Assembly: GCA_963779975.1 (NCBI GenBank)
Contig: CAWAAL010000024.1
Location: 57,153-121,152 of the forward strand
DNA: 64,000 bases
Source of the DNA: an uncultured Planctomycetia bacterium
Lineage (GTDB): Bacteria; Planctomycetota; Planctomycetia; Pirellulales; Thermoguttaceae
Direction of reading: 5' to 3'
Positions 10,249-48,339 of this stretch are shown here, one piece after another (position 1 is the first letter of the stretch; the number at the start of each line of letters is the position of its first letter). A program made the translations under genes and the position numbers. Below the pieces are notes generated by a model that worked only from the letters and a program-made list of their open reading frames with translations, was not told where the DNA came from and ran no database searches.

Positions 10249-10396
10249 TTGCCTTTGCCTCATAGCGGCATACAATGATGGCAGAGTCGCGATACACTCG
10301 ATCGCGACTCTGCAACAAGAATGTCGGATGACTAGATAGAGAGCAACCCGGCCGTACGGGGAGGCTCGTTAGTGAGTAAGCCGACGTGGTCGAATA
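10249..10396 (+). ncRNA. GTCGGATGACTAG-box RNA module, copy 1 (3'-truncated)
   Basis: -35 TTGCCT 10249-10254, 16 nt, -10 TACAAT 10271-10276. 13-bp P1 hairpin 10281-10313; box 10323-10335. The terminator 5' arm breaks at 10396 into an antisense gene relic. Confidence 0.7.
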
Positions 10397-10819
10397 GTCG
10401 TACAGCTCGCGCAGTTGCGTTTCCGGCAGTTCGACGGGCGCCAAATACGGGAAGAGCATCATGTGCTCCCAAGGCATCCAGACCAGTGGAAACGACGGAC
10501 GGATTGGCGCACGAGTGAAGGCGAACGGGTTGACGCCGGACAAGGCAATCGTGGACTCGGCCGTGAGTATGAGTTCCGTGTAGGGTTGGCTGATCTCGAA
10601 TCGACTGGCCGAATTGCCAAAGACATCTTCGAATTCCATGATCGGGACGGCGGGAACAATCTGCAAGCGATAGTTCAAGACGCTCTGATGGACGTCATTG
10701 ATCGGCCGCAGGTGGACGCAATGCTTGCTGTGCTGAACGGGCTGATTGTAACCAAACCGGGTCGTGTGCTTGACAGTCAAGCGACGGCTGCCAATCGTGG
10801 ACGGGACGGGCATGGTCAT
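10397..10819 (-). pseudogene. transglutaminase N-terminal-domain (Bact_transglu_N-like) protein, 3'-truncated by module copy 1
   Basis: RLTVKHTTRFGYNQPVQHSKHCVHLRPIND...FEDVFGNSASRFEI fits the family. Similarity ends at ...LRELYDY, after which the ORF translates the module antisense. Confidence 0.6.
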
Positions 10820-10836
10820 GATGAGGGTCTGAACGG

Positions 10837-11241
10837 CTACTTCTTCTTAACGTCGCGGAGCATCGGCGACTCGGCCAGGGTGAAGAGAACGACCTCCTCG
10901 CCGGTGACGGTGCTAATGTCGTGGTGCATGCTCCGCACCTTGATGCCGGTGATCTCCTGGACCAGCGTTTCCAAGATCGGACGGGCCGTTTCGATCAGAT
11001 GCGTCCGCACTTGCTTGAGCAGGTCGCGCCCCTTCTCGGCAGAGAGCGACTTGACGAGTTGCTGCTCGGCGGCGGTCAAAACGCCTTGCAGGCGGACCAC
11101 GAGCAGATCGCCGAGCAGGTGCGCGTGAATATCCTTGGGTCCCCGGCCCATATAGTCCTGCTCGAAGCGTGTCACTGCTTCGCAGACGGCGGATTCGATC
11201 TCTCCGTGGGTTCTCATGGCAATTTCTCGCTGGGTTCTCAA
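10837..11241 (-). CDS. DUF2294 (MpsC-like) family protein, stand-alone
   Basis: IESAVCEAVTRFEQDYMGRGPKDIHAHLLGDLLVVRLQGVLTAAEQQLVKS...MHHDISTVTGEEVVLFTLAESPMLRDVKKK. Divergent from module copy 2. Confidence 0.8.
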   Translation of the reverse strand: MRTQREIAMRTHGEIESAVCEAVTRFEQDYMGRGPKDIHAHLLGDLLVVRLQGVLTAAEQQLVKSLSAEKGRDLLKQVRTHLIETARPILETLVQEITGIKVRSMHHDISTVTGEEVVLFTLAESPMLRDVKKK

Positions 11242-11344
11242 GAAAGTGGATTATAGCAGATGAACGAAGTTGAGGAAAGCGGTCGAGTAACGCCCTTGAA
11301 CCAGTGGAAGGTCGATCGCCCCGGCGTTCTTGCCAGTCGGGTTA

Positions 11345-11530
11345 TAGCCAGTCGGCAAGGGATCGCTAAAATATAGATGTAACCGCTCCAAAGAGCTTGA
11401 ATGCTCGGATTACGATGAATGTTTGTCGGATGACTAGATGAAATACAACCCGGCCTTGCCGGGGGGTTCGTTGAAGAGTAAGCCGACGTGGCCGAATACC
11501 TGCGGGTGTTCCGCCACGTCGGCTTTTTTG
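11345..11530 (+). ncRNA. GTCGGATGACTAG-box RNA module, copy 2
   Basis: Divergent promoter region (TAGCCA, 16 nt, TAAAAT 11367-11372). Box 11425-11437; full terminator; T6 11524-11529. 75 nt to ATG 11605. Confidence 0.7.
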
Positions 11531-11604
11531 TTTCCGTGGTGCAAGACGGTCGGAATCCATTCACGGAAGGCTACTTCTCGGCCCAAGCATTGGAGGATAG
11601 GATC

Positions 11605-11883
11605 ATGTTGTTCTTGGCGCAATCACTACTCACGATGGCGGGCTTTGAGTACGACGAAATCGACGAAACCTGGGTAGCGCGAATGCCGTTGCGTCCTCTT
11701 GTGGCGGTCGAATGCGACGAGGATCGAGCTTACGTCCGGGAGGCGCTGAGGGAGGTCCAAGCGAGTCTTGACGCTATCGGCTGCGCCTACGACAACTACT
11801 TCGTGGTCAACGGCCGCTTCGTCTCCGTCCCAGGGCCTAGCGCCCGTGCGGCTACGGGTCTGGACGAACAGGATGACGGTTAA
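11605..11883 (+). CDS. hypothetical protein
   Basis: ATG 11605 follows RBS GGAGGA (MLFLAQSLLTMAGFEYDEIDETWVARMPL...). No family recognised. Confidence 0.4.
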   Translation: MLFLAQSLLTMAGFEYDEIDETWVARMPLRPLVAVECDEDRAYVREALREVQASLDAIGCAYDNYFVVNGRFVSVPGPSARAATGLDEQDDG

Positions 11884-12071
11884 AGTCGTCCCCATCCTGT
11901 GCAGGGCAGGATCGGATCGAGCCCGCTCAGCCAATGTCTCGTCAATCTGATGGATCATCCGGCAGGATCGGTCCATCAGGTCCCTCGCCTCCTGTTCATT
12001 GATCTTCAGGTTCCACTTCACGTCGTTGAGCCGCAGGTTACCACACAACTGAAGACCGTAATCGTGCGCGC

Positions 12072-12248
12072 CTACCCGGTCACGTTCTTCACGGCTTTCT
12101 TTACCGCGCAGGCAGCCTTTTGGACGGCCTGCTTCGCCTTCCCGACCACTTGGTCGGTCTTTCCTTCGTCACGAAGCTTGTCGTTGCCGGTCAGCGCCCC
12201 GGCGGCTTCCTTGATTCGACCCTTCACCACGTCTGTCTTGCCACCCAT
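12072..12248 (-). CDS. CsbD-like general stress protein (58 aa, below ORF-track cutoff)
   Basis: Hand translation: MGGKTDVVKGRIKEAAGALTGNDKLRDEGKTDQVVGKAKQAVQKAACAVKKAVKNVTG. ATG at 12248-12246, TAG at 12074-12072. Confidence 0.75.
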   Translation of the reverse strand: MGGKTDVVKGRIKEAAGALTGNDKLRDEGKTDQVVGKAKQAVQKAACAVKKAVKNVTG

Positions 12249-12585
12249 GATGGTGACTCCTTTCCTATAAAGCCCGGAATGGAGAATGCAACAGGTAGGG
12301 CCAATGCAGCGAATTTCGGACGTAAGTGCTTCAAAGTGAAGTGGTTCCGCCGATGGCTGCGGTCATTCTCTGTGCCTCGCTGGGGAACAAACTGTTTCCA
12401 GCCAAGATGAAACAGGCCCAGCAATTCGGTCCATGCCGTCTCGTTGGATGGCAGCGGCACGAAGGGCAGCGTAGCCGACAGGCAAGGCTTCCCTTTCATG
12501 AACAAATGCCCTATTGGTTGTATTTAATTACAGCAGCCAAAGCAGGGGCCCACAAGGGTCCGGCGCCAGGAAAGGACCTGAACGG

Positions 12586-12672
12586 CTACTTCTTCTTTAC
12601 GTCGCGGAGAATGAGCGACTCGGCGCGGGTGAAGAGAACGACCTCCTCGCCGGTGACGGTGCTGATGTCGTT
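12586..12672 (-). pseudogene. DUF2294 gene relic (last 28 codons + stop)
   Basis: The reverse strand reads NDISTVTGEEVVLFTRAESLILRDVKKK-stop. It lies 22 nt left of the copy 3 promoter. Confidence 0.7.
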
Positions 12673-12694
12673 TGAAAGAAAGCCAAAAGCTCTA

Positions 12695-12880
12695 TTGCCT
12701 TCGCCGCGTAGCGGCGTATGATAGTTGTATTGGGAGAATCGCGGCGCACTTGATCGCGACCTTTCAACGCAATTGTCGGATGACTAGATAGAGAGCAACC
12801 TGGATGTGCCAGGGGGCTCGTTGAAGAGTAAGCCGACGTGGTCGAATGCCTTCGGGTGTTCCGCCACGTCGGCTTTTTTC
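12695..12880 (+). ncRNA. GTCGGATGACTAG-box RNA module, copy 3
   Basis: TTGCCT 12695-12700, 16 nt, TATGAT 12717-12722. Box 12775-12787; P2 variant CCTGG/CCAGG; T6 12874-12879. 74 nt to ATG 12954. Confidence 0.75.
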
Positions 12881-12953
12881 GTTTTCGGTGTTGCGGGAAC
12901 AGTCGCAACGACCGAGCATGGTCCTTGGACAATCTCAAAAAGGGAGAGTTATC

Positions 12954-13028
12954 ATGTACATCGGTGGCGGATTGGTTACGCTTGTGATCATCGTCTTGGT
13001 TGTCATGTTCCTCGTTCGCGGCTCTTGA
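12954..13028 (+). CDS. possible 24-aa hydrophobic peptide
   Basis: RBS AAGGGAGAG, then ATG 12954: MYIGGGLVTLVIIVLVVMFLVRGS. The tail resembles the DUF3309 C-terminus (LLLVRGF at 3329). Confidence 0.35.
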   Translation: MYIGGGLVTLVIIVLVVMFLVRGS

Positions 13029-13075
13029 GCGTTCACGAAAGCAAGAACGAATCACAATTCACAAAGGATACTATC

Positions 13076-14764
13076 ATGACCGTACGTCACATTTGCCCAT
13101 GGTGCAGAGTCGCCGCACTGGCAACCCTGGGCGCAATAGTTGGCTTGCACAAGGCTACCGCCGTACCGCCGGGCCCGACGGATGCCGCGGATGGGATACA
13201 AGTGCTCACGCGCGGGCCGGTGCATGAGGCCTTCGCGGAAACGGTGACCTTCGATCCGCAACCGGGCATCGTGGCGCCGAAAGCGCCGCCGGCCGCCATC
13301 GAAGAACTTCCGCCGGACCAGAAACCGGAGGGGGCCAACATCGCCTGGATCCCCGGCTACTGGGCCTGGGACGACGAACGAAGCGACTTCCTTTGGGTCA
13401 GCGGCATCTGGCGCGACCTTCCGCCGAGCCGCCAATGGGTGCCCGGTTATTGGGACCAGTCCGGGCAAGGCTACCAATGGACTTCCGGGTACTGGGCGGA
13501 TGCCCAGGCGAGTAACGTGCAATATTTGCCCGAACCGCCTGTGACCGCCGAAGCCGGTCCCAACATTCCGTCGCCTTCGCCGGACGACACTTGGCTGCCG
13601 GGAAGTTGGCTGTGGCAGCAAAACCGCTATGCTTGGCGTCCCGGTCTCTGGGCCACCGCACATCCGGATTGGGAGTGGGTTCCCGCCCATTACCTATGGG
13701 CTCATCGCGGCTATGTTTTTGTCGACGGCTACTGGGATTACTCCATCGGCCGCCGCGGCGTACTGTTTGCGCCAGTGTATTTCAGTGCGGGCATGTATAC
13801 GCAGCCCCGTTTCTCCTATTCGCCCGCGACGGTGATCGATCTGGATGTTTTCACCAACTGTCTGTTCTTGAGGCCGCAATATCAACACTACTATTTCGGC
13901 GACTACTACGCCGACAATTATCAAGCAGCGGGGTTCTACCCGTCGTATTCGTACAACTCCGGCCGCCATGGCTACGATCCGATTTTCACCCACGAGCGCT
14001 GGCAGCATCGCCAGGACGGACAGTGGGAGCGTCGCATTGCGGCCGACTTCCAGAACCGCCGCGATCACGCGGATGCCCGACCGCCGCGGACGTTGGCGGC
14101 GCAAACAGCATTCAGGGCCGGCGAGGCGACGTCCGGAAAGAGGAGTCCCGTGCTGGCCGTGCCGTTCTCCCAATTCACGAAGAGTCAGAATAGTCCGCTG
14201 CGATTCCAGCCGGTCGATTCGTTGGAGCGACAAAAGCTGGTTCAGCACGTGCAAGCGGTGCAACGATTCCGCGAGCAGCGGCAGAAACTGGAGAACCAAG
14301 CAGCGGCGCCCTCAGCCGCCTCAGCGGCGAGACAATTCGCGCCGGCCAACGGGAGACTTCCCACCTCTCCGATCGCGACGAGGTCAAACACGGAACTCGG
14401 CAAGGATCACGTTCCACCCCAGATGCATGTAGCTCCCAAGCCGGATCTCACGGTCGAGGCCAAGCCGAGAGCGACTCCATCGCTGGAGAAACCGCAGCAA
14501 CGCACCGTGAACCGGCTGCCGCTCGATACGCCGAAACCTGAACCCCGGGCCGAACGGCCGGCACCGAAAGCGGAACCCCGGGTCGAACGGCCGGCACCGA
14601 AAGCGGAACCCCCGGTCGAACGGCCGGCACCGAAACCTGAACCCCAGGTCGAACGCCCAGCGCCGAAACCTGAACCCCAGGTCGAACGCCCAGCGCCGAA
14701 ACCGCCGGCAGAGCGACCGGCAGCGGGACCGAACCGAAATGGACAAAAGGAAAAGGGTAAATAG
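13076..14764 (+). CDS. secreted YXWGXW-repeat protein with Pro/Lys/Glu-rich repeat tail
   Basis: ATG 13076 with a signal-like N-terminus. Repeated GYWxW/WxPGxW aromatics (WIPGYWAWDD, WVPGYWDQSG, WTSGYWAD, WLPGSWLWQ). The tail is (PKxEPxVERPA)n. Confidence 0.6.
   Translation: MTVRHICPWCRVAALATLGAIVGLHKATAVPPGPTDAADGIQVLTRGPVHEAFAETVTFDPQPGIVAPKAPPAAIEELPPDQKPEGANIAWIPGYWAWDDERSDFLWVSGIWRDLPPSRQWVPGYWDQSGQGYQWTSGYWADAQASNVQYLPEPPVTAEAGPNIPSPSPDDTWLPGSWLWQQNRYAWRPGLWATAHPDWEWVPAHYLWAHRGYVFVDGYWDYSIGRRGVLFAPVYFSAGMYTQPRFSYSPATVIDLDVFTNCLFLRPQYQHYYFGDYYADNYQAAGFYPSYSYNSGRHGYDPIFTHERWQHRQDGQWERRIAADFQNRRDHADARPPRTLAAQTAFRAGEATSGKRSPVLAVPFSQFTKSQNSPLRFQPVDSLERQKLVQHVQAVQRFREQRQKLENQAAAPSAASAARQFAPANGRLPTSPIATRSNTELGKDHVPPQMHVAPKPDLTVEAKPRATPSLEKPQQRTVNRLPLDTPKPEPRAERPAPKAEPRVERPAPKAEPPVERPAPKPEPQVERPAPKPEPQVERPAPKPPAERPAAGPNRNGQKEKGK
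14531..14722 (+). repeat. 33-bp tandem repeat x ~5.8 (codes PKAEPRVERPA units)
   Basis: Units at 14531, 14564, 14597, 14630 and 14663, plus a partial unit at 14696, read directly from the sequence. Confidence 0.85.
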
Positions 14765-15041
14765 GTCGTCGTGGTTGAGCCTTGACGGCAAGAACACGAC
14801 CGGCTGTGTGCTCGGCGAGCAGTTCGGCAGGTCGAAGGAAGTGAAACGACTTGCCTTTGCCAGAAAGGCACGAGCAAAAACAAGACCGTGACGACGACCA
14901 CTCAGACCAAGGACGGTAAGACAGCAGGCGGGACGACCACGAACGACACGAAGACAAAAACCACTGCTCCTCCCGCTGGCGGCAAGGCGACTGAAAAGAC
15001 GACCGAAACGACCACCGAGACGACCAAGTAGGTTTTGCGAA

Positions 15042-15094
15042 AGCGTTTTCTGAATGCTAGGTATAACCCCTACGCATTCAGAAACGCTATTTTA
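15042..15094 (+). terminator. long hairpin, terminator-like
   Basis: AGCGTTTTCTGAATGCTAGG / CCTACGCATTCAGAAACGCT (about 19 bp, one bulge), followed by ATTTTAT. Confidence 0.5.
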
Positions 15095-16311
15095 TCCTTG
15101 CTTCGCCCGAAGAAATACGAGCTGGAGATTCACGGCGCGAAGGTGAAACCAGGCTTCGAGGTCGATCCCGATGTCCCGGCCTGTCATTCGGAGGTGCGGG
15201 AACGTGTCCATAGGGTCCGGTCAGATCGCCTGTCGCCTTGCGGTTTGAGTCCTTATGACACGCCTTGGCGGCGGAACGACACCGGCCTTGCTGTGCCCAG
15301 TCCCACCGGGCAACCGTCGCTGAACGCCGCACTTTCGCCTCAATCTTCAGCGCCGGAGTCCAATTTTCCCGAACTACAGGCCATTCCCGATCTCGGCCCC
15401 CCGTCGTTCCCCGAAACGAATGGGCGGGAAGGCACGAGCCCGGCCGAGCCAGCCCTTGACCTGACTCGCAGCGTCGGACGGCCGGTCGCGCTTCCGCAGC
15501 AAACGTACACCCGCTCGTCGGAGTTATCCGACCGCTTGACGCAGATCGCACGCGGCAAGGGCATGCTCCCCGGTCAGGGCATCAACGTCTGCTCATAAGC
15601 AACGGCATCGCCCTCATGCACGGCACCGTCCGCACGCCCGGCGACTGCGTCCTGCTGGCGAACGTCCTGGCTCTCGAACCGGAGGTGCGGCAGATTGACA
15701 ACCGCTTGGTCGCCTTCGGTCCTCGGTAGGCTTTTTGGGCGATCGCCGGTGGCCGTTCGGGGTTCCGTGGCATTGACGCTTTGCGGGCGCTATCGTCGCT
15801 TGTACGCACTCCAGGGGGTAACTGGACGGGATTTCGCTGGTGTCGGCCGGCAAGGCCGGGTTCAGGCGATTACCGGGTCGATCGAGATTGTTGGCTGCGG
15901 CACGAATTGACCCGCCGACCTGAAACAGGGCGCGTAGCGTCGGTCCTGCACCACGGCATCCGGTCGAACCACCACCAGACGGCGCCCATGGCCACGAATT
16001 TGGCGGACCACGAGCACGGATTCCGCATTAAGAAGTGGACACCGAATGAGAGTGATGCCCAGAGTGCTGGGCCGGATCAGAAGGACAATGGGCCATGGCA
16101 GAAAGTGAAACCTTCCGGGCGCTGCACGACAACAGTACGACACCAAAGACAAACAGTGCGGCGCTCGGAGGTTCCTCCCGCGCCGGAAAAGCCGAGCCGA
16201 CACCTGTGCCAATGGCGCCGCACGCATGCGCGCTACAGTACCTCATTTCCATCATCAAGAACTCGCAACGCAGGAGCCCGTCACAATAGAACGACTGAAG
16301 GATGGTGCCTC

Positions 16312-17763
16312 ATGGTAACAATGGACAAGTCCGAACCGGGGTCGATTCGCACCTATCTGATGCAAATGGGCGACATCCCTCTGCTCAGCCGGAGCGAGGA
16401 GTTGGCGACAGCTCGTCAAATCGACAAGACTCGCGGTCGGCTGCGGCGTGGCATGTTGTCCGCCCACTTTATCCTTCACGCGGCGATCGCCGCGGCGGAA
16501 GAAGTCCTGAGCGGCAAGCTGCGGTGGGACCAGGTGATCGAGTTATCGAACGATGATCCCAGGAAGGGGCAGATAACTCAGCTCTTGGAGACGAATTGCC
16601 GGACGCTCGGTCAGCTCCTGCGCTTGAACCGGAATGATTTCCGCATCGCCGTCGGTCATCGGAAGCATTCGCCGGACGATCGTCGGGCCGCACGGCGGCG
16701 GCTAGTCCATCGCCGTCGAAGGGCGGCGTCGTTGATCGAGGAAGTCGCGGTGCGAATGCCCTGCATGCAGTCGGCGCTGACCACGCTCAGGCAGATGTCC
16801 GAACGGATGACCGCCGTCGCCGTAGCGCGGGCGAAAGTGCAATCGGTTGCTGGCGAAGAACACCAACTTGAAGAGCTGCGCAAGGAAATGCGCTGCCTGA
16901 TGCGGGTCACGCAGGAAACCCCAGCCACGTTGCGCCGACACTTGACGCGGATCGCGGCGATGAGCAAAGAGCATGCAGCGGCCCGCCGCGACCTGGCGGC
17001 GGGCAACCTCCGTCTGGTCGTCTCGATCGCCAAGCGATACCGCAATCGCGGGCTGAGCTTGTTGGACCTGATCCAGGAAGGTAATACCGGCCTGATGCGG
17101 GCCGTCGATAAGTTCGAGTCCGCCCGCGGCTTCCGCTTCTCGACCTACGCTACCTGGTGGATCCGCCAGGCCATGAGCCGGGCGATCGCCGACCAGAGCC
17201 GGACCATCCGCGTGCCGGTCCACATGATCGAAAAGATGGGCAAGGTCCGCGACATCAATCGCGATCTGGTTCACAACGAGGGCCGCGAACCGACCCTGGA
17301 GGAAGTGGCCCAACTCAGCGGGCTGTCGATCGCCGACACGCAGCGGGCCTTGAAGATGAGCCGGCAACCGCTTTCCTTGGACCAACCCGTGGGCCATCAG
17401 GAAGAGAACTTCCTTGGCGACCTGCTCTTCGATCATCGCGAAGAAGATCCGCTGGCCGGCATGAACCAGGCCATGCTTCGTTCGAGCATCACCGACGTTT
17501 TGCAGACGCTCGACTATCGCGAGCGGGAGATCCTGCGGCTGCGCTACGGGCTGGCCGACGGCTACACCTCGACACTGCAGGAGATCGGCCGGATCTTCTC
17601 CGTCACCCGGGAGCGGGTCCGCCAGATCGAGTCCGAGGCGATCCGCAAGCTCCAGCGTCCGGCTCTGTCTCGCAAACTCGCAGGCTTTCTGGATGAGCAG
17701 ATCCCGCTGCTGAGCAACATCAACTTCGGTCTCAGCGGGATCGCCATGGCCGGGAATTTGTGA
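16312..17763 (+). CDS. RpoD-family sigma-70 factor (regions 1.2, 2, 3, 4)
   Basis: ATG 16312. [85 protein letters not shown]...[20 protein letters not shown]. Confidence 0.85.
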
Positions 17764-17922: not shown

Positions 17923-18105
17923 TTGCCTTTGCCCTTTGGCGGCGTAAAATGTGAGTGTTGGAAGAGTCGCATGGCAGATCGCGCTGCTCCAACGTAATTG
18001 TCGGATGACTAGAAAGAGGGCAACCCGGCCCTGCCGGGGGGCTCGTTAGCGAGTAAGCCGACGTGGTCGAATACCTCCGGGTGTTCCGCCACGTCGGCTT
18101 TTTTC
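17923..18105 (+). ncRNA. GTCGGATGACTAG-box RNA module, copy 4
   Basis: TTGCCT 17923-17928, 16 nt, TAAAAT 17945-17950. Box 18000-18012; T6 18099-18104. 44 nt to ATG 18149. Confidence 0.75.
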
Positions 18106-18148
18106 GTGCTTGGTTGCGCATCACAGTCACTTCACACGGAGACCCACG

Positions 18149-20779
18149 ATGTTCTGCCCGAGTTTCGCTCCCCTGTTCGGAAATTCCTGGTCTCGCAAGC
18201 GCACCCGCCGGACGCCGGTTGCGAAACGCCTCACTCGGCCGCTGTCGCTGCTTCGCCTGGAATACCTGGAAGATCGCCGAATGCTCACGAGTATTCTGGG
18301 CTCGGCGGGGAGTTTCGCGGTTCTGGGCGCCTCGACGGTGACCAATACCGGCCCGACCACCATCACCGGAAATCTGGGTGTGTACGCGGGTAGTTCGATC
18401 ACGGGCCTGGGGAGCATCACGATCACGGGAACGGTACACCAAACGGATGCGGTCGCGCAGTTGGCGCAGGCCGATAACACCACCGCGTACAATGGTCTGG
18501 CGAACATGCCGTTCAACAGCGACTTGACGGGCGAGGATCTGGGTGGACTCACGCTCGTGTCGGGCGTCTATCATTTTGACTCGGCGGCCCAGTTGACGGG
18601 AACACTCACGCTCAACGCCCAGGGCAACAACAATGCGTTCTGGGTTTTCCAGATAGGGAGCGGGCTGACGACCGCCAGCAACTCGGCGGTTCAGGTGATC
18701 AATTTCGGTTCGAATGGCGGTTCCGATGACGGCGTGTTCTGGCAGGTCGGCAGTTCCGCCACGCTCGGCACCGCCACTTCGTTCGAAGGGAATATTCTCG
18801 CGCTGGCGAGCATCACCCTCAACACCACCGCAACCATTCTGAACGGCAGGGCCTTGGCGCAAACCGGCGCGGTGACGATGGATACCAACACCATCAGTAA
18901 CGTCTGCCCGCTGGGCGGCCCCGGTAACGGCGGCCCCGGCTACAGCGGCGGCCTTGAGTTCAATCCCATTGGCAAAGTCGTGCCCGTTACCCCGGGCGTC
19001 ATCCCGCCAACCGGGCCAGGCGTCATCGGCGGCATGAAGTTCGACGACCTGAACGGGAGTGGGGTGCAGAATGCCGCCGATCCGGGCCTGGCGGGGTGGA
19101 CGGTTTACGTAGACTACAACGACAACGGCGTGTTCGACAGCGCCACGGAGCCGTCGGCAGTGACGGGCCCGGGGGGAACGTATACGATCACGGGCGTGAC
19201 GCCGGGCACCTGGAAGGTGCGGGAAGTCGGCCAGACAGGCTGGACGACCTCGCTTCCTGCGACAAGCGACGTCTACGGCGCCTACCAGCTAGTCACCGTG
19301 CCGGCGAACGGGTCGTTGGTAGGGGTCGAATTCGGCAATTATGAGCAGACCTCGATCCACGGCTACAAGTTCAACGACCTGAACGGCAACGGCGTGGACA
19401 ACAGCGAGCCGCGGCTTGCCGGCTGGACGATCGTGCTGGTCGGCACGACCGGCGCGGGCACTGCGGTCTCGACCACCACGACGACGGGAGCCGACGGCCA
19501 GTATTCGTTCACCGGCCTGGCGCCGGGAACCTACACCGTGAGCGAGCAGAACCAGACCGGCTGGACGCAATTGGCCGGCGGGGCGACGTTCACGCTCACC
19601 AGCGGCGAAGAGGCGGTGGCCTATACCGGTGAGGCGGGCACGCTGTTGCCCGGTCAGGCCGAGGTGCTCACTGCCGGGCTGGCCTTCGGCAACCATCATC
19701 GTAATGTGATCGTCATCGCGCAGGCCAAGAGTCCGAACACGCCGCAATTGGTCCGAGTGATCGACGAGGGGAGCGGGGCCGTGTTGTCGCAGTTCGCACC
19801 GTACGGCAAAACCTTCCAGGGCGGCATTCGGATCGCCACCGGCGATCTCATCGGCAATGGCGCCGACGAGATCGTTACGGCGCCCGGATGGAGCACGGTT
19901 GCGGTCGTCAAGGTGTACAGCCAGACGGGCGTTCTGCTGACGTCCTTCGATCCGTACGGCCCGACGTTCACGGGCGGCGTCCAGGTGGCGATCGCCGACG
20001 TCGATGGCGACGGGTTGAACGACATCATCACGGTTCCCAGCTACGGGCCTGCCGAGATGAAGGTGTTCCGGAACCTGGGCGTCGTGGGTGGAGTGCCCAC
20101 GTTCAATGCATCGCTGCCCTACAGGGAATTCCTCGCCTTTCCGTCGTCGTTCATCGGCGGCGCGGTGGTTACCGCGGCCGACATGGGAAGCACCCCGCTG
20201 GCAAACGGACCGTTCGTCCCCGGGCTGCTGGACGGGAAGGCGGAAATCGTCGTCGGGAGCGGCGCCGGCATGAAGACCACGGTGAAGGTGTTCGACGTTA
20301 GCCGCATGACCACACTCATGCCCAACAGTGTGGCCGCGGCCGTTGCGAGTTTCACTCCTTTCAGCACAGCCACTTTCACTTATAAAGGGGGGGTGTCGCT
20401 CAGCGTGGCGAGGATCAGCGCCAGTCTCACCCCGGACATCATCGTGGGGGCCGGCGTCGCCGGCAATTCCCTGGTGGACGTTTGGGCCTGGAACACTCCT
20501 TCCCCCACGTTGTCCAGTTTATCGGCCAATGGCATGGGCTTTGCCGCGTTCACCGGTCCGAGTCAAACCGCGCCGGTTGAGGTAGCGGCAATGGACACTG
20601 CCGGTAACGGCATCGCGGATACGATTATTGCCGTGCAGGGACCTGGTGGGACCACGGGCCAGATCCGCGCGTTCAAGATTACCAGCGTCTCGCCGCTCCA
20701 GGTTTCGCCACCCACGACAGTCCCCGGCAGCTATCTGCAACCCTATTTCATCGATCAGGTTTTCGCGGCATACGTGTGA
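18149..20779 (+). CDS. large secreted surface protein: DUF3494 ice-binding-like domain + 2 SdrD-B/Cna-B-like domains + FG-GAP/VCBS-like region
   Basis: ATG 18149. N-terminal LRLEYLEDRRMLTS leader, then ILGSAGSFAVLGASTVTNTGPTTITGNLGV..., GxKFxDLNGxGV repeats, and DVDGDGLNDIIT-type repeats. Confidence 0.7.
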   Translation: MFCPSFAPLFGNSWSRKRTRRTPVAKRLTRPLSLLRLEYLEDRRMLTSILGSAGSFAVLGASTVTNTGPTTITGNLGVYAGSSITGLGSITITGTVHQTDAVAQLAQADNTTAYNGLANMPFNSDLTGEDLGGLTLVSGVYHFDSAAQLTGTLTLNAQGNNNAFWVFQIGSGLTTASNSAVQVINFGSNGGSDDGVFWQVGSSATLGTATSFEGNILALASITLNTTATILNGRALAQTGAVTMDTNTISNVCPLGGPGNGGPGYSGGLEFNPIGKVVPVTPGVIPPTGPGVIGGMKFDDLNGSGVQNAADPGLAGWTVYVDYNDNGVFDSATEPSAVTGPGGTYTITGVTPGTWKVREVGQTGWTTSLPATSDVYGAYQLVTVPANGSLVGVEFGNYEQTSIHGYKFNDLNGNGVDNSEPRLAGWTIVLVGTTGAGTAVSTTTTTGADGQYSFTGLAPGTYTVSEQNQTGWTQLAGGATFTLTSGEEAVAYTGEAGTLLPGQAEVLTAGLAFGNHHRNVIVIAQAKSPNTPQLVRVIDEGSGAVLSQFAPYGKTFQGGIRIATGDLIGNGADEIVTAPGWSTVAVVKVYSQTGVLLTSFDPYGPTFTGGVQVAIADVDGDGLNDIITVPSYGPAEMKVFRNLGVVGGVPTFNASLPYREFLAFPSSFIGGAVVTAADMGSTPLANGPFVPGLLDGKAEIVVGSGAGMKTTVKVFDVSRMTTLMPNSVAAAVASFTPFSTATFTYKGGVSLSVARISASLTPDIIVGAGVAGNSLVDVWAWNTPSPTLSSLSANGMGFAAFTGPSQTAPVEVAAMDTAGNGIADTIIAVQGPGGTTGQIRAFKITSVSPLQVSPPTTVPGSYLQPYFIDQVFAAYV

Positions 20780-22543: not shown

Positions 22544-22565
22544 TGAAAGAAGGCCAATAGCCCTA

Positions 22566-38522: not shown

Positions 38523-38605
38523 TTTTCTGTGACGCCAAACGGTCGGAATCCAGCACGGAAGACTTCCAGGTTCAAAATCCTGGAGTTGAGCGGAGGTGAC
38601 GAACC

Positions 38606-39052
38606 ATGAGTCGAGATGCAATTGACAGAATGGAAATCCTCATGGTCGAGGATAACTTGCAGAATGCCAACGGCACGATACAGGCCCTCAAATGGGGCAA
38701 CGTGCAATGCCGAGTGAGCCTGGTCTGCGATGACGAGGAAGCGATCCGCTTTCTCTACCGTAAGGGTGAATTCGCCAAGGCGCCGACGCCCAACCTGATC
38801 CTGCTGGACATGCAGTTGCCCAAGGAGGAAGGTCAGCGCTTGCTTGCGGAAATCCGCGCCAACGAAGAACTCAAGGACATTCCCGTTGTGGTCCTCACCG
38901 GTTCACTGGATCACCGAGCGGGTCTTCACGTCCAAGAGATTCAGGTGGACGGCTTGATCACGCACCCCGTGGAGTTGGACAAGTTCATCGGTGTGGTCAA
39001 GTCGCGTCGCCGGTCTTGGTTGACCGACCTTGCGCTGTCCTCCATTGCCTGA
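38606..39052 (+). CDS. single-domain response regulator (receiver only)
   Basis: ILMVEDNLQNA, LILLDMQLPKEEG, PVVVLTGS, and K in DGLITHPVELDKF. Confidence 0.8.
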   Translation: MSRDAIDRMEILMVEDNLQNANGTIQALKWGNVQCRVSLVCDDEEAIRFLYRKGEFAKAPTPNLILLDMQLPKEEGQRLLAEIRANEELKDIPVVVLTGSLDHRAGLHVQEIQVDGLITHPVELDKFIGVVKSRRRSWLTDLALSSIA

Positions 39053-40257: not shown

Positions 40258-40444
40258 TTGCCTTTGTACCCTCATGACGTACAATGATGGTGTTGGAAGA
40301 GTCGTGGCGCGATTGATCTCGACTCTCCAGCGAACGTGTCGGATGACTAGATGAAGAGCAGCCCGGCTGTGCCGCGGGGGCTCGTTAGTGAGTAAGCCGA
40401 CGTGGTCGAATACCTTGGGGCATTCCGCCACGTCGGCTTTTTTC
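40258..40444 (+). ncRNA. GTCGGATGACTAG-box RNA module, copy 8
   Basis: TTGCCT 40258-40263, 16 nt, TACAAT 40280-40285. Box 40338-40350; T6 40438-40443. 101 nt to ATG 40545. Confidence 0.75.
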
Positions 40445-40544: not shown

Positions 40545-41531
40545 ATGCGTAGTGTTTTGATCATGACAGGCGTGGCTCTCGCGCTGGTCGCGATGGCGGT
40601 TGCCCAAGGACCACTGAAGAGCGTATCGGGCGACTTGCCCGACAAGCCCGCCGCGTCCGATACGGCAACGACGGCAACCGCCGCGTTTGTGGCCAGCCTG
40701 GCGCAGCCGCAAGACGAGAAGTCGATCCGGCTCGCCGCCGAGGCGTTTGCCAAGGCGTATAATGCGGGCAATGCCCAGACGATCGCGCAACTGTTCATAC
40801 CCAGCGGGGAGATAGTCAGCGAAGAAGGCCAATCTACTCAGGGCCGCGAAGCGATCGAGCAAGAGTTCGCAGGAATCTTCAAGGAACATCCCAAGACCCA
40901 CATGGTTCTGGCCATCGGCTCCATTCGGTTCATCGGTCCGGACATGGCCGTCGAGGACGGGACGGCGACCGTGACCCATGGGCCCGACGAGCCCGCCCAG
41001 CGCAGTCCCTACTCGGTGACCTACGCCAGGCAGGACGGCAGGTGGCTGACGGCCAGCTCGCGAGACCTTCCCGATGACACGCCCACGCCCGAGGAGCAGC
41101 TCAAGCAACTCCAGTGGATGATCGGCGAATGGGTGGACGAAAGCCCGGAAGCCCTGATCATGACCTCCTACCGCTGGACCGACAATCAATGCTACATCTT
41201 GAGCGAATTCAAGGTCCAGGTCGGCGGCCGGCCGGTGATGACCGGTACCCAGCGCATCGGCTGGGACCCCTTGGCAAAGAAGATCCGTTCCTGGGTCTTC
41301 GACTCGGAAGGCGGGTTTGGCGAAGGTCTCTGGACGCGGGAAGGCAACCAATGGATCGTGAAAAGGACCGGCGTGACGCGTGACGGAAAGACCGCCTCGG
41401 CGACCAACATCATCGCCCGAGTATCCAAGGACCGAATGACGTGGCAACAACGGGACCGCATCGTCGGCGGGGAGAAGACGCCCGACATCGCGGAAACCCC
41501 GATCACGCGTAATCCGCCCGCCCCCAAATAA
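40545..41531 (+). CDS. secreted protein with two NTF2-like (SnoaL/DUF4440-type) domains
   Basis: Signal peptide. IRLAAEAFAKAYNAGNAQTIAQLF...GREAIEQEF, and a second unit LKQLQWMIGEWVDES...WTREGNQWIVK. Confidence 0.55.
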   Translation: MRSVLIMTGVALALVAMAVAQGPLKSVSGDLPDKPAASDTATTATAAFVASLAQPQDEKSIRLAAEAFAKAYNAGNAQTIAQLFIPSGEIVSEEGQSTQGREAIEQEFAGIFKEHPKTHMVLAIGSIRFIGPDMAVEDGTATVTHGPDEPAQRSPYSVTYARQDGRWLTASSRDLPDDTPTPEEQLKQLQWMIGEWVDESPEALIMTSYRWTDNQCYILSEFKVQVGGRPVMTGTQRIGWDPLAKKIRSWVFDSEGGFGEGLWTREGNQWIVKRTGVTRDGKTASATNIIARVSKDRMTWQQRDRIVGGEKTPDIAETPITRNPPAPK

Positions 41532-45002: not shown

Positions 45003-45007
45003 GTTCC

Positions 45008-46670: not shown

Positions 46671-46862
46671 TTGCTTTCCTCATGCCGCGCCATACAATGG
46701 TTAATGGAGGGGTGGCGAAGTCGAAAGCCGCTCGCCCCAGAAGTGAATTGGAAGTCGTCGGACGACTAGATAAAGAGCAAGCCGGCCGTGCCGGGGGGCT
46801 CGTTAGTGAGTAAGCCGACGTGGCGGAATACCTCCGGGTGTTCCGCCACGTCGGCTTTTTTC
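46671..46862 (+). ncRNA. GTCGGATGACTAG-box RNA module, copy 9 (box variant GTCGGACGACTAG)
   Basis: TTGCTT 46671-46676, 16 nt, TACAAT 46693-46698. Box 46757-46769; T6 46856-46861. 38 nt to ATG 46900. Confidence 0.7.
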
Positions 46863-46899
46863 GTTCTTGATCGTTTCTTAACCAATACAGAGGATCGTC

Positions 46900-47115
46900 A
46901 TGAGAAGGCTGATGTTCGTGGTCGTTTTGCTCGTGATCGGCATCGCCGGCTTCGGGTATTACCGCGGTTGGTTCGCTTTCACGGTGGACAAAGACAAGTT
47001 CCACCAAGATGAACAAACAACCAGGGAAAGGGTGCAAGGCGCCGGGCAAGAGGCCAAGGAAAAGGTCGACAATCTGACTGGCGGCAAGGTCAAAGAACCC
47101 CAGCGCCAACCCTGA
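46900..47115 (+). CDS. small N-terminally anchored membrane protein
   Basis: MRRLMFVVVLLVIGIAGFGYYRGWF, then a charged tail (KDKFHQDEQTTRERVQGAGQEAKEKVDNL). RBS GAGGA. Confidence 0.5.
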   Translation: MRRLMFVVVLLVIGIAGFGYYRGWFAFTVDKDKFHQDEQTTRERVQGAGQEAKEKVDNLTGGKVKEPQRQP

Positions 47116-47200
47116 GACTTTACACTTTGTGGATGCTAATCACGGACCATGTTGGCATTTCGCCAACTTGGGCACACTATACGTGAAGGAGAATTTGATC

Positions 47201-47377
47201 ATGTTACGGCTTGCTATCGTGTTCCTCGTCATCGCCCTGATCGCCGGGTTCCTCGGCTTTGCAGGAGTGGCACAATTATCCTGGGACGGAGCGAAGATCC
47301 TCTTCGTTGTCTTCCTGATCCTCGCCGTGCTCTCTTTCGTGGGGCACGGTTTCCGGAGGCGACCCTACTGGGGGTAA
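47201..47377 (+). CDS. DUF1328 (UPF0391/YtjA-like) small membrane protein
   Basis: ATG 47201 follows RBS GAAGGAG. MLRLAIVFLVIALIAGFLGFAGVAQLSWDGAKILFVVFLILAVLSFV. Confidence 0.7.
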   Translation: MLRLAIVFLVIALIAGFLGFAGVAQLSWDGAKILFVVFLILAVLSFVGHGFRRRPYWG

Positions 47378-47384
47378 CGCATAG

Positions 47385-47571
47385 TTGCCTTTTTCCCCTT
47401 GCGGCGTATAATGATGGTGCTGGCAGAACCGCGACGCACTTCATCGCGACTCTGGCAGTGAAATTGTCGGATGACTAGATAGAGAGCAACCCGGCCGTGC
47501 CGGGGGGCTCGTTAGCGAGTAAGCCGACGTGGTCGAATACCTGCGGGTGTTCCGTCACGTCGGCTTTTTTG
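47385..47571 (+). ncRNA. GTCGGATGACTAG-box RNA module, copy 10
   Basis: TTGCCT 47385-47390 (8 nt after the DUF1328 stop), 16 nt, TATAAT 47407-47412. Box 47466-47478; T6 47565-47570. 29 nt to ATG 47600. Confidence 0.75.
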
Positions 47572-47599
47572 TTTTCTTACCCGAAAGGAAGGTGCCACA

Positions 47600-48010
47600 A
47601 TGTCGGAAAACCGCATCAAGATCGCTCCCGAGACAGTAGCGTATGCTGACTCGGAGACGCGCAAGCTCGTGGTGGAATTCGCCATCCCGGGAGCGCCCAC
47701 GGATTCCATCGACGTGAAGATCCTGGGAGACAGCATCCACCTGACGGCGCCCGCAAGGGACATCGAGTATGTTTCGGCCCTGGCTTTAGCCTGGCCGGTG
47801 AAACCGGACAAAGCCGAAGCGATCTACGAGCACGGACTGCTCCGCATCGAGGTGCCCTTCAAAGATCCGATGGAGGATGCCGTGAAGGTTGCCATCAAGA
47901 CAGCCGGTACCGAAACCAAGCCCGCAGTAATCGCGACTCCAGCGGTTCCGCCGGCGGTTGGACGCGGCAGTAGCAAGCCGCTGGCCGTCGAACCGGCCTT
48001 AACGGTCTGA
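47600..48010 (+). CDS. Hsp20/alpha-crystallin family small heat-shock protein
   Basis: KLVVEFAIPGAPTDSIDVKILGDSIHLTA...AIYEHGLLRIEVPFK. Confidence 0.7.
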   Translation: MSENRIKIAPETVAYADSETRKLVVEFAIPGAPTDSIDVKILGDSIHLTAPARDIEYVSALALAWPVKPDKAEAIYEHGLLRIEVPFKDPMEDAVKVAIKTAGTETKPAVIATPAVPPAVGRGSSKPLAVEPALTV

Positions 48011-48138
48011 GCCGCGGGCCTTAACGGCCTGAGCCACGCCAGGGCACGCGTTGCCCCAGGCCTCGGTTTCTCAGCGGCGACAGGCTGTTGATCACGCTAA
48101 CTGCCGTGCCAACTTGCACGGCCATTTGGAAAGGCCGC

Positions 48139-48339
48139 TTGTGCTTCTCTTTCCGTACGGTATAATTGGAGTGTGCTGCGAGGCGGCGGAGAGCTCCGCG
48201 CGACTTGCTGACGCAGTGGATTTGAATTCGTCGGATGACTAGATAAAGAGCAACTCGGCCGGAATGGCCGGGGGGCGCGTTGAAGAGTAAGCCGACGTGG
48301 GCGAATGCCTTTGGGTGTTCGGCTACGTCGGTTTTTTTG
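48139..48339 (+). ncRNA. GTCGGATGACTAG-box RNA module, copy 11 (most divergent)
   Basis: TTGTGC 48139-48144, 16 nt, TATAAT 48161-48166. Box 48230-48242; P2 variant CGGCC-ggaat-GGCCG; T7 48332-48338. 109 nt to ATG 48448. Confidence 0.7.

Follow-up and report, generated by a model that had tools for sequence, protein, structure and literature searches.

Among described regulatory RNAs, CsrB/RsmZ-type sponges have many GGA sites, and riboswitches of the pbuE adenine type follow an ON logic. The module analyzed here has a single GGA site, unlike the former, and would share the logic of the latter if it were read as a riboswitch. It is conserved across the phylum Planctomycetota and is in none of the RNA databases searched. 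A search of Rfam 15 matches it to no family, as an earlier reading made from the letters alone (the sequence-only reading) had supposed, and a literature search did not find it described. The module is also present in related planctomycete genomes; more than 118 loci are found among the matches listed, in Pirellulales, Gemmataceae, Isosphaeraceae, Thermoguttaceae, Tepidisphaeraceae and Phycisphaerae.

The window, i.e. the whole 64,000 nt stretch of DNA analyzed, has eleven module copies, ten complete and one truncated at the 3′ end, all on the + strand (Table 1). Searches with the box GTCGGA(T/C)GACTAG (11 sites on the + strand) and with a profile (ten full-length copies, E 1e-27 to 1e-31, and one copy cut at 10396) both recover the set listed by the sequence-only reading. 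The start coordinates given there for the −35 elements are correct in all eleven copies, but the U-tracts stop one base before most of the ends given (e.g. 11529, not 11530). The eleven copies lie within 38 kb, and other genomes have similar clusters. The 3′ 105 nt are about 80–88% identical between copies of the window and to loci of other genomes. Recurrence of the module in the window is far beyond chance.

Table 1. Module copies and associated features of the window (window positions; gap is the distance in nt from the U-tract to the downstream gene).
Feature	Position	Strand	Parts or evidence	Downstream gene	Gap
PAS-HisKA-HATPase-REC hybrid histidine kinase	7184-8995	+	adjoins REC-MpsC gene		
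Orphan hairpin, 5′ UTR of REC-MpsC gene	9048-9088	+	profile positions 60-100, E 5.6e-4		
REC + MpsC/DUF2294 response regulator	9115-9974	+	Pfam REC 1.4e-21, MpsC 5.5e-28; start ATG 9115		
Copy 1	10249-10396	+	TTGCCT, N16, TACAAT; P1; box 10323-10335; P2; terminator 5′ arm		
Stand-alone MpsC/DUF2294 gene	10837-11241	-	Pfam MpsC 9.1e-36		
Copy 2	11345-11529	+	box 11425-11437; P2 11433-11479; terminator 11482-11529	conserved hypothetical	
Copy 3	12695-12879	+	box 12775-12787; terminator 12832-12879	WXXGXW-repeat protein (ORF 12806-14764)	~196 (likely start)
csrA fragment, decayed, C-terminal half	15122-15208	+	reads ...KVKPGFEVDPDVPACHSEVRERV; tblastn with planctomycete CsrA		
Copy 4	17923-18104	+	box 18000-18012; terminator 18057-18104	ice-binding-like / SdrD-B protein (ORF 18110-20779)	44
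Copy 5	22566-22747	+	box 22643-22655; terminator 22700-22747	sigma-70-family factor with Mor-like N-terminus (ORF 22706-23791)	30
Copy 6	30397-30580	+	box 30476-30488; terminator 30533-30580	YflT-type general stress protein (30637-31170), then SPFH/Band 7	56
Copy 7	38337-38521	+	box 38417-38429; terminator 38474-38521	single-domain response-regulator receiver (38606-39052)	84
Copy 8	40258-40443	+	box 40338-40350; terminator 40396-40443	SnoaL/DUF4440 protein (40545-41531), then TPR protein	101
Copy 9	46671-46861	+	box variant (T to C) GTCGGACGACTAG 46757-46769; terminator 46814-46861	small ORF and DUF1328 (47129-47377)	
Copy 10 (exemplar)	47385-47570	+	−35 47385-47390; −10 47407-47412; P1 ~47419-47461; box 47466-47478; P2 47474-47520; linker AA; terminator 47523-47570	HSP20-like (ATG at 47600)	29
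Copy 11	48139-48338	+	box 48230-48242; terminator 48291-48338	GT4-family glycosyltransferase (48448-49683)	109

Copy 1 lacks the terminator 3′ arm and the U-tract and matches profile positions 1–75 only. It abuts a truncated transglutaminase-N open reading frame on the minus strand, and this boundary suggests a rearrangement junction.

The promoter had been described as TTGCCT, 16 nt and TA(C/T/A)AAT. The 16 nt spacer is found in all eleven copies; the TTGCCT hexamer is present in eight, the exceptions being copy 2 (TAGCCA), copy 9 (TTGCTT) and copy 11 (TTGTGC). These promoters are the best sigma-70-like sites of the region scanned, and a promoter is at the fixed distance in 128 of 175 copies. 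Copy 2 also deviates in its −10 (TAAAAT) and in its P1, a P1 type that recurs together with the downstream gene family in other loci (L065, L093). In copy 11 both P1 and the P2 loop are longer. The variable P1 hairpin, which the sequence-only reading took as its main evidence, is present; however in a minority of copies elsewhere only 7–8 nt separate the −10 from the box, and thus P1 is dispensable.

The near-invariant box, GAGTAAG and the two-part terminator hold as described, and so does the C:G to U.G to U:A series of the GC hairpin in copies 4, 7 and 3. Helices P2b, P2c, P2d and the terminator covary, with 27 of 35 pairs changed on both sides among 95 sequences. Pairing is possible in 94.9% of the cells of these helices versus 31–48% in slid controls, and none of 500 shuffles matches. 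P2a shows two compensatory cases. RNAalifold arrives at the same fold independently. The module is a real RNA under selection, with two formal tests supporting P2 and the terminator, and the proposal of a unit of promoter, structured RNA and intrinsic terminator selected for its structure is borne out. Conserved nucleotides are concentrated in internal loops and at helix bases, and the apical loops of the covarying stems differ in length. The box and GAGUAAG are near-invariant across the phylum and lie outside of the promoter and terminator stems. The terminator is a perfect helix of about 19 bp followed by U6–9. Once the terminator has formed, the box is either unpaired or in a small hairpin with a GGA loop; its flanks can close a short stem around the loop GUCGGAU in 69% of cells, versus 19–35% in controls.

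Same-strand open reading frames begin a median of 53 nt past the U-tract. In the set of loci ascertained by protein the median to the same-strand gene start is 47 nt, and in the exemplar copy the distance is 29 nt. Gaps of this size leave no room for a separate promoter, thus the downstream genes would depend on readthrough. The module had been taken for a stand-alone structured RNA gene; its context makes a 5′ leader and transcription attenuator the best reading, rather than an RNA gene standing on its own.

The downstream proteins fall into recurrent families across the phylum. These include HSP20, YflT, CsbD, DUF3309, DUF1328, PRC-barrel, ferritin-like, KaiC and DnaK proteins and sigma factors, and the regulated genes are of the general-stress type. 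In L029 and L072 the module also precedes a sigma factor of the copy 5 cluster, and in L032, L088 and L091 a glycosyltransferase of the copy 11 family. In 33 of 137 instances the gene directly after the module is MpsC-like. Conversely, when loci are picked by the MpsC-like protein alone, 51 of 62 (82%) have a module within 400 nt upstream, and csrA is the next gene in 36 of 49. The commonest operon order is module, MpsC/DUF2294-like gene, csrA. The module is most likely a shared on/off switch before stress-response genes. The sequence-only reading did not link it to stress genes, csrA or MpsC-domain proteins.

The GUCGG of the box duplicates the terminator 3′ arm and is complementary to CCGAC in the 5′ arm. 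The box, previously taken as unpaired, thus appears to provide the 5′ strand for an alternative pairing with the 5′ arm, the antiterminator. In minimum free energy folds of the nascent transcript all five box:CCGAC pairs form in 149 of 165 copies, versus 17 of 165 when the 5′ segment is shuffled, and copy 1, without the 3′ arm, folds with its box paired to the 5′ arm. When folded at full length the RNA forms the terminator, and forcing the antiterminator costs +8.4 kcal/mol. The box:CCGAC helix is 97.5% pair-compatible versus 2–41% in slid controls. No statistical covariation is found for this helix (214 of 500 shuffles match); it is compatible with the alignment but unproven, because both strands are nearly invariant. 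In the part of the terminator stem that overlaps the antiterminator, changes on both sides are only A-U to G-C (12 sequences) and C-G to U-A (5), and all of these keep wobble pairing with the box. As a point against the best explanation given below, pairing of the RNA by itself can explain all of the box conservation.

The best explanation, slightly more likely than not, is an attenuator leader with three competing strands and stress genes behind it that are reached by readthrough. Each module would begin a transcription unit: a leader of about 150 nt is transcribed from a sigma-70-type promoter (TTGCNT, N16, TAnAAT) up to a strong intrinsic terminator, and expression of the stress genes would require that this terminator be read through. 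The strands would be the box, (G)UCGG; the terminator 5′ arm, CCGA(C); and the 3′ arm, (G)UCGG. During transcription the box:5′ arm pairing would come first and would lengthen the P2 hairpin across a conserved 3x3 internal loop (AUG/AAG) to form the antiterminator. The emerging 3′ arm could then displace the box and form the terminator, predicted to be about 8 kcal/mol more stable. A trans-acting factor may set the balance: one that keeps the box off the 5′ arm would give termination, and one that stabilizes the box:arm helix would give readthrough. The analysis shows the structure and its conservation, the position as a leader, the competing pairings and the gene associations. Regulated readthrough is a step that we infer, since the antiterminator has only five canonical pairs and the terminator always wins thermodynamically, and this applies above all to the effector, which may be CsrA, an MpsC protein or a small ligand.

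The best effector candidates come from the operon with the closest tie to the module: its MpsC/DUF2294-like protein and CsrA. A freed box could form a small hairpin that has GGA in its loop, which is CsrA-like. Several observations count against CsrA. About 12% of unselected copies have another base in place of the A of the box GGA. Each leader has a single conserved GGA, which lies over 100 nt away from the ribosome-binding site. Downstream there is no enrichment of a second UCGGA (17 occurrences versus 11 expected), and the spacer element that is conserved reads RRGAC instead of GGA.

It is possible, if doubtful, that the module is a metabolite or ion riboswitch of the ON type. The aptamer would be a long irregular hairpin in which the box:CCGAC helix is followed by the 3x3 loop, P2a and the P2 inner loops, and a ligand that is a global stress signal, e.g. 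an alarmone, a cyclic dinucleotide or an ion, would stabilize the closing helix and hold the terminator 5′ arm, giving readthrough. The overlap of that helix with the 5′ arm and the distribution of conserved nucleotides and covarying stems agree with this, many copies per genome before functionally related genes are like other multi-copy riboswitches, and conservation would be explicable without any protein; the fold matches no known class. However the regulon covers stress genes broadly, sigma factors and csrA among them, without a transporter or biosynthetic theme to suggest a ligand. The pocket that a ligand would occupy is small and simple, and a tight link to an operon of two small regulatory proteins is more typical of protein-mediated autoregulated leaders. 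Ranked after it, and likewise improbable, is a free-standing multi-copy trans-acting sRNA whose functional product is the terminated transcript of about 150 nt, either a base-pairing RNA with the box as seed or a single-site CsrA sponge effective through copy number, with downstream genes expressed by leaky readthrough or weak promoters of their own. The anatomy is classic for an sRNA (own strong promoter, 5′ protective hairpin, conserved single-stranded segment, strong terminator with a long U tail), the box of the terminated fold is unpaired or in the small GGA-loop hairpin, many copies have an identical “seed”, and csrA is nearby in many genomes; the attenuator and sRNA readings are also not mutually exclusive. 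Against it, the module keeps one orientation and position right before genes, at distances that cannot accommodate a promoter, the same downstream families recur across the phylum, and the single GGA is unlike a sponge. The + strand of the window has no match to the box complement under 3 mismatches, and total matches are near chance.

A passive, unregulated cassette with a strong promoter, stabilizing 5′ structure and leaky terminator, setting a fixed low expression or insulating operons, is very unlikely; regulation would then all be at initiation, e.g. by a dedicated sigma factor for TTGCNT, N16, TAnAAT. The promoter does belong to the conserved unit and its fixed 16 nt spacer is unusual, a sigma-70-family gene is recurrent downstream, as expected of an autoregulated stress sigma factor, and the antiterminator lacks covariation. 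Yet such a cassette leaves unexplained the phylum-wide near-invariance of the box and GAGUAAG, the duplication of the terminator 3′ arm by the box and the confinement of 5′ arm substitutions to those still pairing with the box, and the terminator itself is a poor design for constitutive expression. The high copy number and clustering would suit a mobile or selfish intergenic repeat (MITE, REP or Correia type) or a phage-derived one, with promoter- and terminator-like sequences by chance. This reading, the least probable, is effectively refuted by conservation across classes of the phylum and not just within species, by the constant position upstream of and co-oriented with genes, by covariation that preserves RNA helices, and by viral contigs, of which 2.9 million yield just one match. 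The alignments show neither terminal inverted repeats nor target duplications.

Under the attenuator reading, the REC-MpsC regulator, whose gene directly precedes the array, may be a trans-acting partner or supply the signal input. The adjoining PAS kinase is its presumed cognate sensor, and the two may serve as the stress input. Orthologues of the regulator are found in L119 and L120. The kinase arrangement is kept in L119. No module is found there within 10 kb on either side of the orthologue, which counts against the attenuator reading. The stand-alone MpsC gene lies between copies 1 and 2, divergent from copy 2, and is 59% identical to the REC-fused MpsC domain. The window MpsC genes have 27% identity to the module-linked MpsC-like proteins and are of a different subfamily, a further point against the attenuator reading. 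The decayed csrA fragment has 62% identity over 29 aa to planctomycete CsrA. The orphan hairpin before the REC-MpsC gene, without U-tract, box or P2, closely resembles the module terminator stem (CCGACGTGGCCGAAGG...GTTCCGTCACGTCGG).

All eleven copies of the module in the window (copies 1–11) are located by the box sequence GTCGGA(T/C)GACTAG, which is found eleven times, on the + strand only, and at the positions assigned by the sequence-only reading. A profile built from the conserved core gives ten full-length copies with E-values of 1e-27 to 1e-31, and a profile search places the -35 element where that reading had put it in 11 of 11 copies. The core profile match to copy 1 ends at position 10396, within the terminator, i.e. 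this copy is 3′-truncated as described earlier. The spacer between the -35 and -10 elements is exactly 16 nt in every window copy, as claimed. The -35 element had been given as TTGCCT throughout; this is true of eight copies, however copy 2 has TAGCCA, copy 9 has TTGCTT and copy 11 has TTGTGC.

With small corrections of this kind, the anatomy first proposed for the module is accurate. Alignment of the window copies shows a variable P1 hairpin and a nearly invariant 3′ two-thirds. Each complete window copy folds into P1, an unpaired box, a long segmented hairpin (P2a–d) and a strong terminator of ~19 bp with U6–7. The terminator stem has 10 + 9 pairs, with a GC-rich hairpin directly before a U-tract of U6–9. 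The terminator is the minimum free energy (MFE) structure in all complete copies, and a consensus scan also picks up the terminator of copy 9. The apical loop of P2 varies and measures 3–4 nt, that of the terminator 4 nt. At three loci in other genomes (L080:3441–3599, L093 at ~5864–6010 and L091:6394–6578) the apical loop of P2d or of the terminator hairpin carries an insertion of 20–40 nt with the core intact, so these loops are not under constraint.

Since the first set of copies had been chosen by an exact pattern, the fetched DNA was also searched with a profile, and 43 further copies outside the pattern were recovered. In these pattern-independent copies UCGG, GAC(U) and GAGUAAGCCG are at least 95% conserved, and box positions 6–7 vary most. 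The structure test was performed on an alignment of 95 sequences (A4) that includes the pattern-independent copies. P2 and the terminator are 94.9% paired in A4, compared with 31%–48% when the partners are slid. Changes on both sides are found in 27 of the 35 pairs, and the observed values are reached by none of 500 shuffles, whichever measure is used. The same helices come out of an independent RNAalifold prediction, and separate counts on 170 sequences agree with the A4 result. The proposal of a structured RNA under selection is therefore supported by pairing, both-side changes, shuffle test and independent prediction alike with respect to P2 and the terminator. P2a (ACU/AGU) is almost invariant and shows two compensatory cases. 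P1, where present, is well supported by its folding energy, with a median of -16 kcal/mol (z of about -2). A minority of copies in other genomes have no P1, and in these the -10 element is only 7–8 nt ahead of the box; the functional conserved core is thus the box, P2, the AA linker and the terminator.

The RNA family is real and strongly selected, and is apparently undescribed. Rfam 15 (4,227 models) gives no match in the window at gathering thresholds, which agrees with the initial view that the module belongs to no known family. A scan of copy 10 at a permissive E-value yields only hairpin-shaped chance matches (miRNA precursors, ctRNA) of 20 bits or less against thresholds of 37–100. Full-text literature searches that covered the box sequence, DUF2294, and the structured RNAs, sRNAs and CsrA of planctomycetes gave no account of the module. 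The sole earlier candidate for a planctomycete cis-regulatory RNA in the searchable literature is the Rhodopirellula-1 motif (Weinberg et al. 2010, PMC2864571). Similar to the module, it is a multi-copy candidate 5′ regulatory RNA of Planctomycetes found 5′ of short hypothetical genes (PMC2864571). However, its published Stockholm alignment displays a single bulged hairpin with AAC..GAUGAAC...GUUAUC..CGUU at the base (PMC2864571), and it has neither the GUCGGAUGACUAG box, nor GAGUAAGCCGAC, nor an attached terminator. The module is not a Rhodopirellula-1 RNA; the sequence blocks of that motif are absent from it and the architectures differ.

A strong promoter of the form TTGC(A/T/C)T, N16–17, TA(C/T/G)AAT is present at a fixed distance in 128 of 175 copies, and the module promoters are the best sigma-70-type sites in the part of the window scanned. 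Of 140 instances, 137 have a co-oriented open reading frame downstream. The gap after the U-tract has a median of 53 nt and a lower quartile of 32 nt; in the window it is 29 nt for copy 10, 30 nt for copy 5, 44 nt for copy 4 and 56 nt for copy 6. This space appears too short for a further promoter and an untranslated region, thus the downstream genes are presumably transcribed through the terminator. The module had been taken for a free-standing RNA gene, however the same-strand open reading frames at short gaps and the recurrent downstream families point to a 5′ leader. The recurrent families (Pfam) are HSP20, YflT, CsbD, DUF3309, DUF1328, PRC-barrel, ferritin-like, KaiC and DnaK, and in addition sigma-70-family factors, GT4 glycosyltransferase, SnoaL/DUF4440 and ice-binding-like proteins. 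This gene set is of the general-stress type. The rest of the window encodes acetate kinase, phosphoketolase, PPK2, GH130 and HAD enzymes, a P-type ATPase, a desaturase, an ECF sigma factor and several sensor kinases, which is consistent with a stress or dormancy island.

The core of the box, GUCGG, is the same sequence as the 3′ arm of the terminator and is complementary to the 5′ arm, CCGAC. In copy 1, where the 3′ arm is missing, the MFE structure pairs the box with the 5′ arm and extends P2. To model nascent transcripts, the RNA was cut off immediately ahead of the lower 3′ arm. The five pairs between the box and CCGAC all form in the MFE structure of 149 of 165 such transcripts, compared with 17 of 165 when the 5′ 14 nt are shuffled. 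In the full-length RNA the terminator is favored by a median of 8.4 kcal/mol. The box had been described as near-invariant and unpaired, and this holds for the folds of complete copies; however, we read the box as an antiterminator strand. The box:CCGAC helix is 97.5% pair-compatible (2%–41% in slid controls). Statistical covariation is absent from this helix (214 of 500 shuffles match), as there is hardly any variation in either strand. In the part of the terminator that overlaps this helix, only two kinds of both-side change occur, A-U to G-C in 12 sequences and C-G to U-A in 5, and both retain wobble pairing with the unchanged box, whereas swaps of all kinds occur higher in the stem. As a sequence pattern this is suggestive of a strand held by two alternative partners. 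Between the box:CCGAC helix and P2a there is a conserved 3x3 loop (AUG/AAG) in which the outer A.G and G.A are kept and the middle position is free. By inspection its strands do not fit the consensus of the K-turn, sarcin-ricin or UAA/GAN motifs. Where the terminator has formed, the released box tends to fold into a short hairpin that places GUCGGAU in its loop; the flanks are 69% paired compared with 19%–35% in controls, and the changes are all one-sided. A leader peptide (AUG-ACU-AGN-stop) in the box was rejected: ACG variants have no AUG, and P2b pairing is a better explanation of the apparent stop-codon pattern, in which UGG and UUG are also seen. On balance we lean toward the reading that the module serves a phylum-wide stress regulon as its common 5′ leader and attenuator.

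A scan of one genome per species with two conserved blocks at the observed spacing places the module at a minimum of 118 loci, as had been anticipated for other planctomycete genomes. These are in Pirellulales, Gemmataceae, Isosphaeraceae, Thermoguttaceae, Tepidisphaeraceae and Phycisphaerae; among the matches listed, both major classes of Planctomycetota are represented. In several genomes module-bearing loci are clustered within tens of kilobases, as in the window. Two kinds of mobile sequence were considered as the source of these copies. A repeat of the MITE/REP type would account for multiple copies, however the module is phylum-wide and always located 5′ of genes in the same orientation; the module alignments show no terminal repeats. 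A phage or other mobile origin was rejected, as 2.9 million viral contigs contain one match to the two-box pattern (L121, IMGVR_UViG_3300032397_001619, positions 2877–2936, minus strand), a contig that may be a prophage flank or mis-called as viral. Six module contigs (L081, L108, L115, L029, L064 and L044) are from metagenome-assembled genomes (MAGs) labeled Methanomassiliicoccaceae archaeon, Bacillota, Gammaproteobacteria, Deltaproteobacteria or Victivallales. Five of these also carry an MpsC-like gene or csrA, and L044 has modules only. The neighboring genes are planctomycete-like and the contigs are probably mis-binned planctomycete DNA. As such contamination of bins is likely, the module could serve as a taxonomic marker.

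The commonest gene directly 3′ of the module encodes an MpsC/DUF2294-like protein of ~140 aa (33 of 137 instances), and a canonical csrA usually follows this gene after 20–40 nt. To remove ascertainment through the RNA, 80 metagenomic loci were fetched through the MpsC-like protein alone, and 62 of these have enough upstream DNA. The module is found within 400 nt upstream on the same strand in 51 of the 62, at a median gap of 47 nt, and in four more it is 740–1,050 nt upstream. csrA is next after the MpsC-like gene in 36 of 49 protein-ascertained loci. Since the linkage persists in loci chosen by protein, the module, the mpsC-like gene and csrA are a conserved unit. Together with the MpsC genes and the csrA fragment in the window (see table), this makes MpsC-domain proteins and CsrA the obvious candidates for a trans-acting factor. 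No intact csrA was found in the window. The csrA remnant is just upstream of a large sigma-70 gene (15781–17763).

Window features related to the candidate effectors
Feature	Position	Strand	Description
Terminator-like hairpin	9048–9088	+	In the 5′ UTR of the REC-MpsC gene; almost identical to the module terminator stem-loop; no U-tract, box or P2
REC-MpsC response regulator (receiver + MpsC)	9115–9974	+	Directly before the array; PAS hybrid kinase in front
Stand-alone MpsC gene	10837–11241	-	Between copies 1 and 2
Decayed csrA remnant	15122–15208	+	In ORF 15035–15598; only the C-terminal half recognizable (...KVKPGFEVDPDVPACHSEVRERV)

We class the module with the terminator/antiterminator leaders or with the orphan riboswitch candidates. 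PyrR-pyr, BglG/LicT-RAT, HutP-hut and EutV/AmiR (REC-ANTAR) are systems of terminator/antiterminator leaders in which the gene for the RNA-binding regulator is in the regulated operon. The module resembles these leaders in its constitutive-looking promoter, short leader, intrinsic terminator and predicted alternative pairing that uses the 5′ arm of the terminator, and in being a single cis element repeated before several operons; here too, the downstream gene with the tightest linkage is that of a small protein from a candidate regulator family. REC-MpsC parallels REC-ANTAR as a response regulator with a candidate regulator domain. By analogy with PyrR and BglG, MpsC-domain proteins or CsrA could act as autoregulated RNA-binding (anti)terminators; on other analogies they might be REC-ANTAR-like regulators, or a FliW-like partner of CsrA. 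However, the module sequence and fold are unrelated to RAT, PyrR-binding loops, UAG repeats and the ANTAR dual hexaloop hairpins. ANTAR substrates consist of a tandem pair of hairpins, each with a hexanucleotide loop in which A1 and G4 are conserved, and the second hairpin overlaps the terminator; the small loops of P2 and the terminator provide no dual hexaloop, and an ANTAR-type leader was rejected. RNA binding is not known for MpsC/DUF2294. A sequence search of solved structures found no relative of MpsC, and a fold search with predicted models gave weak, generic matches only, which lend no support to RNA binding. The AlphaFold model of REC-MpsC had a pLDDT of 37 from the single sequence and was redone with an alignment. 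The window MpsC proteins are of a different subfamily from the module-linked MpsC (27% identity). A general linkage of REC-MpsC to the module in orthologous contigs was rejected: there is no module within 10 kb on either side of the orthologous REC-MpsC locus L119, and two modules are present in L120.

With respect to CsrA, known high-affinity CsrA/RsmE sites are that of hcnA, UUCACGGAUGAA, and the SELEX consensus RUACARGGAUGU. The box, UUGUCGGAUGAC, resembles these sites, with GGA in a short hairpin loop, and a canonical csrA is second in the most tightly module-linked operon. CsrA also controls termination in the E. coli pgaA leader. Leaders regulated by CsrA typically have two or more GGA sites in hairpin loops, one of them over the Shine-Dalgarno sequence. 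The module has one conserved GGA, which is in the box (the P2 and terminator loops have none), >100 nt from the Shine-Dalgarno sequence and with no overlap. The adenine is not invariant either, being replaced in ~12% of unselected copies (GGA is present in ~88%), and a second UCGGA site after the terminator is not enriched (17 compared with 11.2 expected). A sponge of the CsrB/RsmY/RsmZ type, with ~5–20 GGA per RNA, mostly in hairpin loops, is rejected on the single conserved GGA. A small-molecule ligand that stabilizes the closing helix, in the style of an ON riboswitch, would explain the RNA data equally well. Similar to the pbuE/ydhL adenine riboswitch, the predicted closing helix of the module shares its 3′ strand with the terminator 5′ arm, and stem covariation, conserved loops and multiple copies per genome are also in keeping with ON riboswitches; however the candidate aptamer consists of one irregular hairpin, the regulon holds no metabolic clue and there is no Rfam match. 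The lambda PR′-tR′ region (6S RNA) also has a strong promoter, an RNA of 150–200 nt terminated by default and downstream genes that need antitermination. However, lambda Q uses a DNA site and a promoter-proximal pause where the module has a predicted alternative RNA pairing, and the module is chromosomal, in many copies and not phage-associated. Any particular effector, taken singly, is thus far an unlikely choice.

There is a substantial chance that the module represents either a new riboswitch class or a new DUF2294/CsrA protein–RNA antitermination system. The fuller proposal is more tentative than the attenuator role itself: the module might be the cis element of an unrecognized phylum-wide system of stress control by conditional termination, either as a new riboswitch class or as the RNA target of MpsC/DUF2294 antitermination or partner-switch proteins (including the phosphorylation-controlled REC-MpsC) acting with or on CsrA. 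If the MpsC option is true, it would give DUF2294 its first function and present an ANTAR-like or FliW-like module in a new fold; the protein collection has >1,500 relatives of the window MpsC domain. An RNA element tied to csrA and to the uncharacterized DUF2294/MpsC family provides concrete testable hypotheses. To our knowledge, the regulation of the general stress response in Planctomycetota is essentially unknown. The module marks a regulon that can be read from the genome, i.e. chaperones, CsbD/YflT-type proteins, Dps-like ferritin, KaiC, sigma factors and compatible-solute enzymes. It is a large and deeply conserved RNA family of hundreds of examples for which Rfam has no entry. With a covariance model of the core, stress operons and their transcription starts would be flagged in any planctomycete genome or MAG, and mis-binned contigs would be easier to expose.

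The spacer between the U-tract and the start codon of mpsC-like operons (e.g. at loci L011, L081 and L087 of other genomes) has a semi-conserved element, GUUCUUGGC..RRGACGUUCRC. The element is also present at window positions 11530–11560 and 38522–38550; its RRGAC is often in a small hairpin loop, and GGAAGAC is common to the element and some box variants. The spacer before mpsC-like genes yielded no consensus fold, and the motif conserved there is RRGACGUUC, not GGA. The terminator-like hairpin ahead of the REC-MpsC gene may be either the remnant of a module or a binding site in its own right.

Directly 3′ of copy 5, positions 22706–23791 (+) encode a sigma-70-family protein with regions 2 and 4 and a weak Mor-like match at the N-terminal end. 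A sigma-70-family gene is also directly 3′ of the module at loci L029 and L072. The window protein is possibly an autoregulated stress sigma factor for TTGCNT, N16, TAnAAT promoters. Two other genes of the window look split. CheB/CheR is represented by open reading frames 4313–5323 and 5211–6134; the orthologous contig L119 encodes it as one protein of 899 aa. The phosphoketolase (26744–29296) looks split into XFP_N at 26744–28042 and a 400-aa open reading frame with no Pfam match. These may be frameshifts, pseudogenes or assembly errors.

A transglutaminase-like open reading frame at 10127–10819 (-) is truncated to its N-terminal domain and runs into the truncated copy 1. These two truncations, together with the inverted stand-alone MpsC gene, suggest an inversion or deletion junction at ~10397. 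As copy 1 has the promoter and lacks the terminator, it would drive antisense transcription into neighboring minus-strand genes. The ~55 nt upstream of copies 3 and 5 (12640–12700 and 22510–22570) are near-identical, i.e. CCTCGCCGGTGACGGTGCTGATGTC.TTTGAAAGAA.GCCAA.AGC.CTATTGCCT. The 3′ ends of the upstream open reading frames 12326–12721 and 22249–22527 are thus paralogous and the duplication unit exceeded the module.
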